A stretch of DNA of 3,405 nt from the sequence record JX625144; one strand, 5' to 3'. Source of the stretch: Enterobacteria phage M. Below the pieces are notes generated by a model. The model ran no database searches and was not told where the DNA came from. It saw only the letters and a list, made by a program, of their open reading frames with translations. The translations under genes and the position numbers were made by a program. Of the stretch, positions 90-3,304 are shown piece by piece. Position 1 is the first letter of the stretch, and the number at the start of each line of letters is the position of its first letter.

Positions 90-1277
90 ATGTATATTGA
101 TGTTACTTCCCCTGTGTCTGAGACATGGTCCGGTACGTGTACCGTCCATCGCCCTGCGGATAAAGGGGGACCTTACCAGAAGACTATCTCTGGGAAAGTG
201 ACGACTTTATCCTCATCGCGAGCTACTTCCTCGGGAAAGAAGGGAACTGTGGTTATTGCCGGTGAGACGATACCTTGGGCATACCCAAGGCCGTACTCAC
301 GTTGCATTACCCAGCGAACCCCCCTCGGAGGTAGTTTCGAGCTAGTTGTTGACGGTTATCCGGCGACTCTCTTTGGTCGTATACCATCGGAGACGATGGT
401 TACGCCTGGAGGTTCGTCTGTTACCATAAAGAGAATTCCTAATGTAACGGACTTCTCTGGTTTACCAACTATCTCAAGAAACGAACGATCGCGTAACTAT
501 GCGTCGTTCGCCGACTCGTTTAATGACGGGTCGGAACTCGCGAATGCTGCCCTTGAGTTTGGTGACAATATCGCTCTCCTCGCTAATTTAGCGACGAGCG
601 TTATGTACTTCTACCGCGGGGTACGACACGGGTCTATTTCTGATCTTAATCGTGCCTTCGGCGGAGGAAAGATTCGTAGTGTCTCTAAAAATGCGTCTTC
701 ACGCTACTTAGAGTATATCTACGGTATCCAACCCACTCTCGATGACATTCATTCGACCTTTGAGGTACTAAAGAATACTCCTCTGTCGAATCTCATTGCT
801 AGGCGAAAACGCATGTTTACGCTTGACCGTGAGTTCTCCGACGGTGGATTCCGCTTTAGTGGTAAGTTACATCACCAAGTTGGGTGTCATTATTGGTTTG
901 ACTCGCCTGAGCTTCATAATATGAGCTCATTGGGTCTTATCAATCCTGCACTCATTGCTTGGAATGCTGTACCTTACAGCTTCGTACTGGATTGGGTCCT
1001 ACCGATTGGTAGTCTCCTAAATTCGCTCACCGCATATGCGGGTGCGAACTTCATTTCCGGGTGGGATACTCTCTACCTGGAAGGAACCTGTACGTGTGCT
1101 CCTCGTTATTCGTCACTATCGGCCTCCTGGCCGACAGCGTCCTCTCTTATCACGATAAAAGCGATGCGTCGACAGGCCCTTGCTGGGTTTCCCCGGCCGT
1201 TGCCTTTCGTCAAAAATCCTTTATCGACCACTCACCTTGTAAACTTTGCCGCCATGTGGCGTCAGCGTTACAAATAA
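90..1277 (+). CDS. mat: Maturation (A / attachment) protein, 395 aa
   Basis: First long ORF at the 5' end of a levivirus-organised genome. ATG at 90 is preceded by GGAGG (76-80) with a 9-nt spacer; stop TAA at 1275-1277. Size (395 aa) is typical for levivirus maturation proteins. Assignment rests on gene order and size; I cannot verify homology by eye. Confidence 0.85.
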   Translation: MYIDVTSPVSETWSGTCTVHRPADKGGPYQKTISGKVTTLSSSRATSSGKKGTVVIAGETIPWAYPRPYSRCITQRTPLGGSFELVVDGYPATLFGRIPSETMVTPGGSSVTIKRIPNVTDFSGLPTISRNERSRNYASFADSFNDGSELANAALEFGDNIALLANLATSVMYFYRGVRHGSISDLNRAFGGGKIRSVSKNASSRYLEYIYGIQPTLDDIHSTFEVLKNTPLSNLIARRKRMFTLDREFSDGGFRFSGKLHHQVGCHYWFDSPELHNMSSLGLINPALIAWNAVPYSFVLDWVLPIGSLLNSLTAYAGANFISGWDTLYLEGTCTCAPRYSSLSASWPTASSLITIKAMRRQALAGFPRPLPFVKNPLSTTHLVNFAAMWRQRYK

Positions 1278-1304
1278 CCGGCTTTGCCGTCAAAGGTATT
1301 TATT

Positions 1305-1706
1305 ATGCCTCAGCTCCAACCGCTGGTCCTCAAAGACCGTGCAGCTACACCAAAAGATCGTACCTTCTCTCCTTTCAATATTGAAGGAGGCGTTGGCTAC
1401 CTTGTTGAACGTACAGGGATTCCTGCGGGCGATAACACGTTTTCCATCTCCAGCCGTAAAACCGCTGGCGGAAAATACCGTGCTACCATCAAATTGATGA
1501 TGCCCGTGGTAACGACCAACCAATCGGTCAATGGAGTTACGGTTGTAACTTCTGAACGAGTGGCGGTTGCTACTTTGGAATTCCAGTTTGACGCTCGCTC
1601 TACTGAGCAAGAGCGTAAAGACCTGGTTAGCCTGATTCAGAGTTCTCTGGACCCGGCTAAATCTTTAGTCAATGACGCTGTTGTCAAACTGGAAGGCGTA
1701 TACTAA
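1305..1706 (+). CDS. cp: Coat (capsid) protein, 133 aa
   Basis: ATG at 1305 with AAGG (1293-1296) 8 nt upstream; stop TAA at 1704-1706. The ORF track begins this frame at an in-frame TTG (1284), but the ATG with SD is the more plausible start. Length of 133 aa and central position are typical of levivirus coats. The sequence (MPQLQPLVLKDR...FQFDARSTEQERKDL...VVKLEGVY) resembles PRR1/Qβ-type coat proteins as I recall them, including the C-terminal Y. Confidence 0.92.
   Translation: MPQLQPLVLKDRAATPKDRTFSPFNIEGGVGYLVERTGIPAGDNTFSISSRKTAGGKYRATIKLMMPVVTTNQSVNGVTVVTSERVAVATLEFQFDARSTEQERKDLVSLIQSSLDPAKSLVNDAVVKLEGVY

Positions 1707-1741: not shown

Positions 1742-1745
<4 letters not shown>
1728..1745 (+). 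promoter_or_regulatory. Putative translational operator hairpin spanning the replicase start codon (coat-protein binding site)
   Basis: ACAU(1728-1731) pairs with AUGU(1742-1745), A1732 is unpaired (bulge), GG(1733-1734) pairs with CC(1740-1741), loop AAUAA (1735-1739). The replicase AUG (1742-1744) sits in the 3' arm. The architecture mirrors the MS2 operator (ACAUGAGGAUUACCCAUGU: lower stem, bulged A, GG/CC, A-rich loop). Confidence 0.6.

Positions 1746-3304
<1,559 letters not shown>

Follow-up and report, generated by a model that had tools for sequence, protein, structure and literature searches.

An alternative-frame open reading frame across the maturation–coat junction of phage M is very probably a chance opening and not a gene

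Results

Genes and features of the window

Phage M depends on IncM plasmids for infection, and its genome is available as GenBank JX625144 (Rumnieks and Tars 2012, PMC3561173). The window, meaning the whole stretch of DNA that was analysed, is this genome of 3405 nt; one contig in IMG/VR is 100% identical to it, and the primer CTGGCGCCTTTGGTGGATAC, published for phage M (PMC3561173), is located at 3072–3091. The gene order is typical of a levivirus: mat, coat, replicase. The mat gene lies at 90–1277 on the plus strand and encodes the maturation protein of 395 aa, whose cluster contains a member annotated as the phage M maturation protein (PF03863). The coat gene follows at 1305–1706 on the plus strand (133 aa; PF01819 in the relatives described below), and the replicase gene occupies 1742–3304.

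The lysis gene lysM (also sglM) is at 2991–3104 on the plus strand, starts with UUG, and encodes a 37-residue inhibitor of MurJ. It was mapped by expression to 2991–3104 and is lytic in E. coli, lysis being reported just for a clone spanning 2098–3129 (PMC3561173); the structure of LysM bound to MurJ has since been characterised (PMC12506998). Here lysM serves as the positive control.

The subject of this analysis is a candidate ORF at 1061–1384 on the plus strand, running from a GTG to the TGA at 1382–1384 and encoding 107 aa. It spans the final 72 codons of mat, the mat–coat spacer and the initial 26 codons of coat, which agrees with the preliminary description in that the 3' part overlaps the start of coat. 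That description also gave the coordinates, the GTG start, the length and a hydrophobic N-terminal stretch correctly, but its placing of the ORF in the +1 frame of mat was mistaken: taken modulo 3, mat and coat are both in frame 0 and the ORF is in frame 2, so that it lies in the +2 (equivalently −1) frame of both genes. The ORF occupies most of a longer run in frame 2, 123 codons without a stop (1013–1381, plus strand), flanked by TAG at 1010–1012 and by its own TGA. The same frame contains 29 stops within 44–1010, so the open run is locally conspicuous. It is the longest alternative-frame ORF in phage M, and is uninterrupted there.

There is no AUG inside the ORF, as had been stated, and one internal in-frame GUG, at 1094–1096 on the plus strand, is the sole start of the ORF with a Shine–Dalgarno (SD)-like motif. 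Initiation at GUG1094 would yield 96 aa in phage M. Two minus-strand ORFs, at 1106–1231 and 1290–1610, lie near the candidate; we know of no translation of levivirus minus strands.

Initiation context and RNA hairpins

The preliminary description found no SD sequence before GTG1061. This holds: the predicted duplex with the anti-SD sequence is just −2.8 kcal/mol, at the 40th percentile of NTG triplets in the genome, and opening the site is predicted to cost 14.8 kcal/mol, at the 90th percentile among 154 NTG triplets. GUG1061 thus lacks the legitimate SD sequence that is among the criteria of Chamakura et al. (2020) in screening for Sgl genes. What had been missed is the sequence GGAAGGA 8 nt upstream of GUG1094, which has an anti-SD duplex of −5.7 kcal/mol and reads GGAGGG in four non-redundant relatives (L004 and L006–L008); the opening energy at GUG1094 is 9.3 kcal/mol. 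For the UUG of lysM, the corresponding values are −6.0 and 6.5 kcal/mol, which place this start among the best 8% in strength of the SD and the best 4% in accessibility; no other start in the genome combines the two as well.

Both GUG1061 and the SD-like motif belong to one RNA hairpin of 14 bp at 1051–1085 on the plus strand, in which 1051–1065 pairs with 1072–1085 around a loop at 1066–1071. GUG1061 is in the 5' arm, and the GGAAGG at 1079–1084 is in the 3' arm. The hairpin is fully paired in seven sequences, and two of its pairs show compensatory changes between wobble positions: 1055/1082, from U-A to C-G, and 1058/1079, from C-G to U-A. Control pairings in slid registers gave no compensatory changes. 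The invariance of positions 1059–1078 is explained by this hairpin, which would bury GUG1061. A second hairpin is predicted over the stop codon of the ORF (1367–1392, plus strand; 1367–1375 pairs with 1383–1392), with compensatory wobble pairs at 1370/1388 and 1373/1385, and a third is predicted at the start of coat, where 1294–1299 pairs with 1305–1310 on the plus strand and holds the coat AUG. Nothing in Rfam matched at E ≤ 1.

Length of the open frame

At 107 codons from GTG1061 the ORF exceeds the minimum of 25 codons from ATG, GTG or TTG set for Sgl genes by Chamakura et al. (2020). This threshold is non-specific, being reached by 11 sense-strand alternative-frame ORFs of the phage M genome. 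The length expected by chance was obtained by shuffling synonymous codons inside each gene, which keeps both the proteins and the codon usage. In the shuffled genomes, the longest alternative-frame ORF was 85 ± 21 aa, with a genome-wide probability of 0.14 for 107 aa or more, and the longest stop-free run was 94 ± 21 codons, with a probability of 0.10 for at least 123 codons.

The open frame is less probable when only this site is considered (P = 0.008, conditional on both proteins, mat and coat). We rejected this value as evidence for a gene: the site was picked after the fact, and the fair test is therefore the genome-wide maximum, with its P of 0.10–0.14. The length of the candidate ORF is not beyond chance.

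The hydrophobic stretch

The "TM-like" stretch NLYVCSSLFVTIGLLADSVLSY comprises residues 9–30 of the ORF (1085–1150, plus strand). Its highest Kyte–Doolittle mean over 19 residues (KD19) is 1.84 in phage M, as compared to 2.02 for LysM and 1.74 for the lysis protein L of MS2. Hydrophobic ORFs of 25 aa or more in alternative frames (KD19 ≥ 1.6) are common by chance: each shuffled genome has approximately 2.5 of them, as against four in the real one. Length and hydrophobicity taken together, with 107 aa or more and a KD19 no lower than 1.84, have P = 0.04 in the same null model.

The origin of the stretch can be followed codon by codon. The mat protein here reads CTCAPRYSSLSASWPTASS, with many Ser (TCN), Cys (TGY), Tyr (TAY) and Trp (TGG) codons. 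The first position of the mat codons is therefore rich in T, and because this is the second position of the ORF codons, the ORF acquires NUN codons, specifying Leu, Phe, Val and Ile. The hydrophobic character is a side effect of a segment of mat rich in Ser, Cys, Tyr and Trp, an artefact of translating it in another frame.

In the relatives, the stretch is less hydrophobic. KD19 is 1.75 in L002 and 1.24–1.39 in the other five of the six non-redundant relatives, and in these five the stretch is more polar, having gained Asp, His or Arg: the homologous stretch reads VTVDHLADSV in L006–L008 and VTVGHLANSV in L004, and an Arg was acquired in L003. A predicted transmembrane domain is among the screening criteria for Sgl genes of Chamakura et al. 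(2020), although we note that such a domain is not universal among proven Sgls (PMC7693330).

Relatives of phage M and stop codons in the frame

Relatives were collected by a protein search with mat, which gave a cluster at ≥90% identity with six members besides phage M. The corresponding contigs, L002–L008, comprise six from Logan assemblies of read sets and one from a JGI metagenome; the M-like sets are SRR18186874, SRR23055105/6, SRR24706582, SRR17030294, SRR23314751 and JGI 3300066765. They are 89–90% identical to phage M in nucleotide sequence and approximately 96% identical in the mat protein, and have no indels in mat. Other searches gave little. The whole window gave no match by megablast in the phage collection, and tblastn with mat found only relatives at less than 30% identity, too distant for tests of the frame. 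The ORF product matched nothing in Pfam or PHROGs; a single match among 1.84 billion representatives (E = 2e-4) was to a tandem-repeat protein and was judged spurious. Scans of IMG/VR with the peptide and with 20-mers found phage M alone, and a 20-mer scan of JGI metagenome contigs found no match. In L009, a more distant relative whose mat is 32% identical, the mat/coat junction has no ORF on the sense strand that reaches 25 aa.

The frame is closed in most of the close relatives. Codon 50 of the ORF, at 1211–1213 on the plus strand, is CAA (Gln) in phage M, L006 and L008, and TAA in L002, L003, L004, L005 and L007. The stop, present in five of the seven relatives, comes from the wobble position of a Val codon in mat (GTC to GTT) and is silent in mat. 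In L004 and L005 there is in addition an insertion of 1 nt in the mat–coat spacer, which shifts the frame, and all the relatives have a TAA at 1376, two codons ahead of the stop used in phage M. Stops in relatives were what the preliminary description had said would count against the ORF. The frame is thus not one that stays open in close relatives, as an overlapping gene should. On a neighbor-joining tree, a stop is the most parsimonious state for the internal nodes at 1211; the open state (in phage M, and in L006 with L008) must then have arisen twice.

We also counted the single-nucleotide routes to a stop that are silent in both mat and coat. Two of the 12 such routes in the ORF are realised, against a genome baseline of 48 of 232; stops build up in this frame at the neutral rate.

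The first 50 codons of the ORF are open in all seven relatives, and both GUG1061 and GUG1094 are invariant. It could be argued from this that the gene is a shorter one: a conserved peptide of 39–50 aa, running from either GUG as far as the stop at 1211 or beyond (39 aa from GUG1094 in the relatives that carry the stop), functional in all M-like phages, with the 107 aa of phage M being read-on. The GGAGGG before GUG1094 in L004 and L006–L008 would fit with this. However, there are just three silent routes to a stop in these 50 codons, and the probability that none would be realised is 0.5, so that their openness is uninformative; the invariance at 1059–1078 is accounted for by the hairpin; and the only hydrophobic stretch of such a peptide gains charged residues. 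The peptide diverges by about 22–25%, as against about 4–5% for mat, and synonymous variation under 1086–1151 is at background, as shown below. We regard a functional short peptide as highly improbable.

The same data bear on a non-coding role for the frame, in which ribosomes would slip by −1 near the end of mat, read beyond the mat stop and over the start of coat, terminate at 1382, and thereby open the coat hairpin. In phage M the frame does form a bridge from mat, over its stop, to the AUG of coat, which is a matter of geometry alone, and the coat AUG is inside a predicted hairpin. The bridge is nevertheless abolished by the TAA at 1211 in five of the seven relatives and by the spacer indel in two, and no slippery site was identified. 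We give this explanation almost no credence.

Selection on the frame

The wobble position of mat is the first codon position of the ORF, and any coding constraint from the ORF should therefore show strongly at synonymous sites of mat. Compared pairwise, degenerate codons have a synonymous difference of 0.262 each in mat 90–1060, 0.186 in 1061–1274, and 0.228 in the TM-like part. Variable synonymous columns number 11 of 19 in the TM-like part, compared to 151 of 241 in the body of mat (p = 0.8), and 14 of 26 in 1062–1151 (p = 0.4). There is a modest overall reduction in 1062–1274 (26 of 60, p = 0.008), which comes from 1152–1274 (12 of 34, p = 0.003). This dip is downstream of the hydrophobic segment and is similar on either side of the stop found in the relatives. 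It leads to a near-invariant block at 1277–1357 on the plus strand, containing the mat stop, the spacer and coat codons 1–18, in which 79 of 81 nt are constant, equally in the three frames.

Dual coding was considered as the cause of the dip in 1062–1274 and was rejected: the TM-like part is spared, the dip straddles the stop, and it merges into the block at the coat start. Its position points instead to a constraint at the RNA level around the start of coat, and not to the candidate ORF.

The amino acid sequence in the frame of the ORF gives a similar result. Identity is 0.745–0.78, as compared to 0.713 ± 0.083 in windows of the +2 frame, 31% of which are at least as high. The candidate therefore shows neither the synonymous suppression nor the raised identity in its own frame that together identify an overlapping gene.

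In the same test, lysM behaves as a gene. In L003 and L007, the two relatives whose contigs cover lysM, the UUG start and the 37 codons are kept, with an identity of 0.905. The synonymous difference in replicase is 0.043 under lysM and 0.262 elsewhere, a suppression of approximately sixfold, and variable replicase columns number 3 of 35 under lysM against 171 of 424 (p = 9e-5). A check of synonymous variation across relatives had been proposed in the preliminary description; it gives no suppression beneath the hydrophobic segment.

As an observation of wider use, a small set of relatives and a simple test at synonymous sites are enough to separate lysM from chance ORFs.

Comparison with known lysis proteins

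The candidate resembles LysM in lying in an alternative frame inside a core gene, in starting at a codon other than AUG, and in having a hydrophobic stretch of approximately 19 residues. Unlike the candidate, LysM is lytic by experiment, is conserved, suppresses synonymous variation in replicase, and has the genome's best pairing of SD strength with accessibility. BLASTP gave no alignment between the two at E ≤ 100. The resemblance to L of MS2 is of the same kind, consisting of an overlapping frame, a hydrophobic domain, and a Leu-Ser (LS) dipeptide after the hydrophobic stretch (VLSY). The candidate differs in being at the mat/coat and not the coat/rep junction, and in having no basic N-terminal domain (it has one basic residue); the LS becomes FS or FP in L002 and L003, and there is no sequence similarity to L. 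Of the features by which MS2 L-like proteins are recognised (a basic N-terminus, a hydrophobic domain, a conserved LS and sequence similarity), the candidate does not show the set.

Leviviruses with second or cryptic sgl genes do exist (Chamakura et al. 2020, PMC7693330). The candidate is like the cryptic sgl candidates of the Beihai9_2 type in having at least 25 codons and a hydrophobic segment, and in occurring alongside a functional sgl of the same levivirus (PMC7693330). The majority of such alternative-frame candidates were non-lytic when tested, and Beihai9_2 proved able to gain lytic function by laboratory evolution (PMC7693330), whereas the candidate ORF is interrupted in natural relatives.

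This precedent suggests a further explanation, namely that the ORF encodes a cryptic or auxiliary lysis protein specific to phage M, a proto-gene of recent origin, translated from GUG1094 or from GUG1061 and inserted in the membrane via residues 10–28. The ORF is intact in phage M, its KD19 is near that of LysM and of L of MS2, GUG1094 has an SD-like sequence at a spacing of 8 nt, and the joint probability of its length and hydrophobicity is low. On the other hand, LysM is conserved and suffices to lyse E. coli, the frame carries no signature of selection, and hydrophobic alternative-frame ORFs are usual by chance; parsimony favours a stop at 1211 in the internal nodes, and the SD-like motif and GUG1061 form arms of one conserved hairpin. 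We consider such a lysis protein very unlikely. A similarly small chance is given to its most specific form, a young proto-sgl opened by one synonymous change, with a membrane-active product of 96–107 aa translated at a low level from GUG1094. If it were true, this would be the birth of a lysis gene de novo, caught in one lineage beside the established lysM.

Discussion

The frame of the candidate ORF is not conserved among M-like phages, its sequence changes at background rates, and the hairpin that contains its start covaries. We conclude that ORF 1061–1384 is very probably a chance open reading frame in the +2/−1 frame and not a gene, and we infer that it is not translated. "Probably spurious" was the judgement already made in the preliminary description, and the stops in relatives and the lack of synonymous suppression under the hydrophobic segment bear it out. 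What doubt remains is small in total, and comes from the ORF being intact and hydrophobic in phage M, from the SD-like motif before GUG1094, and from the precedent of cryptic sgl genes (PMC7693330).

The frame is open in phage M because mat has few positions here that can form a stop, and because phage M has C at 1211. This position is the main one: a C gives the Val codon GTC in phage M, and the synonymous T of most relatives gives TAA. The working content of 1061–1384 is the C-terminus of mat, the mat–coat spacer, the initiation region of coat, and the conserved RNA hairpins, with lysis of the host by phage M presumably carried out by LysM from 2991–3104.

The outcome, one false candidate fewer for a lysis gene in a genome that is already well studied, matters little in itself. 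The relatives are of more general value. Seven natural M-like genomes, approximately 10% diverged from phage M, exist in public read sets, and they expose RNA hairpins with compensatory changes at wobble positions. They also indicate that the unusual position of lysM is common to the relatives, at least to the two that cover lysM, a comparison that was beyond the reach of the 2012 genome paper.

Relatives of phage M in public data

Public data contain seven M-like levivirus contigs, L002–L008, at a divergence from M of about 10%. Their sources are SRR18186874, SRR23055105/6, SRR24706582, SRR17030294, SRR23314751 and JGI 3300066765.

Alternative-frame ORFs in the coat and replicase genes

A UUG-initiated ORF of 83 codons lies at 1246–1497 (+), in the +1 frame of coat. 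In each of the five relatives covering this region the frame is open and its stop identical, and none of the 16 routes by which a stop could arise through a change silent in the overlapped gene has been realised (P about 0.025 against baseline). However, the ORF overlies the near-invariant RNA region around the coat start (1277–1357), and divergence in its downstream half is no different from background. No Shine–Dalgarno (SD) sequence precedes the UUG start; the Kyte–Doolittle 19-residue mean is 1.53.

The replicase gene contains an alternative-frame ORF of 98 codons at 1887–2183 (+). The frame is open in four relatives; its stop is absent from all four, and the ATG start of M is ACG in L002 and L003. 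Replicase synonymous variation falls to 0.09–0.14 at 2072–2206, with almost no variation across nucleotides 2085–2165. This stretch terminates at AGCAA (2167–2171), for which the genome paper (PMC3561173) proposes long-distance pseudoknot pairing with the 3′ U1 loop; the motif is kept in all relatives.

Synonymous variation and RNA structure in the maturation and coat regions

Across the first 45 or so codons of the maturation gene, mat (90–224), synonymous variation is 0.05–0.09, compared to about 0.26, and there are no amino-acid changes among the relatives. This is consistent with the structured 5′ region by which mat translation is controlled in leviviruses. Further into mat, the adjacent wobble sites 1211 and 1214 co-vary perfectly: M, L006 and L008 read GTC AAA there, and all other relatives GTT AAG. 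This pattern conflicts with the tree for mat and points to homoplasy, to recombination or to an RNA contact.

Two hairpins carry compensatory changes. The first, a 14-bp hairpin inside mat (1051–1085, +), is supported by two wobble–wobble changes of this kind among close relatives and has an invariant loop, AUACUC; it is possibly a packaging or coat-binding stem-loop. The second spans coat codons 21–29 (1367–1392, +), where two pairs change in this way: 1370/1388 from U-A to C-G, and 1373/1385 from U-A to C-G in L002. In the mat–coat spacer, L004 and L005 have a 1-nt insertion (C) at 1300/1301, which falls within the predicted coat-start hairpin, in its loop, and lengthens the spacing between the coat SD and AUG.

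Position and constraint of the lysis gene

In a more distant relative, the Logan contig L009, whose mat is 32% identical, a 34-residue ORF (MDIDVVGLYSLLENLQLMLLTFLEAIRSFLPEIS) is called in the coat–replicase gap (L009 1799–1903). It is a possible single-gene lysis gene, sited elsewhere than lysM, the lysis gene of M (2991–3104).

M was stated in the 2012 genome paper to be the only isolated IncM-specific RNA phage (PMC3561173), so that whether the unusual position of lysM is shared could not be asked at that time. The position is common to M, L003 and L007, which keep the UUG start and 37 codons, with 3–4 amino-acid changes in L003 and L007. Synonymous variation in the overlapping replicase gene is already suppressed some 50 nt ahead of the UUG of lysM (2942–3016), in a stretch that takes in the SD (GAGG) and the AU-rich hairpin at the start; between 2960 and 3010 only one site varies among four sequences. 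Suppression beginning this far upstream indicates that constraint on lysM extends to its initiation region as well as its coding part.
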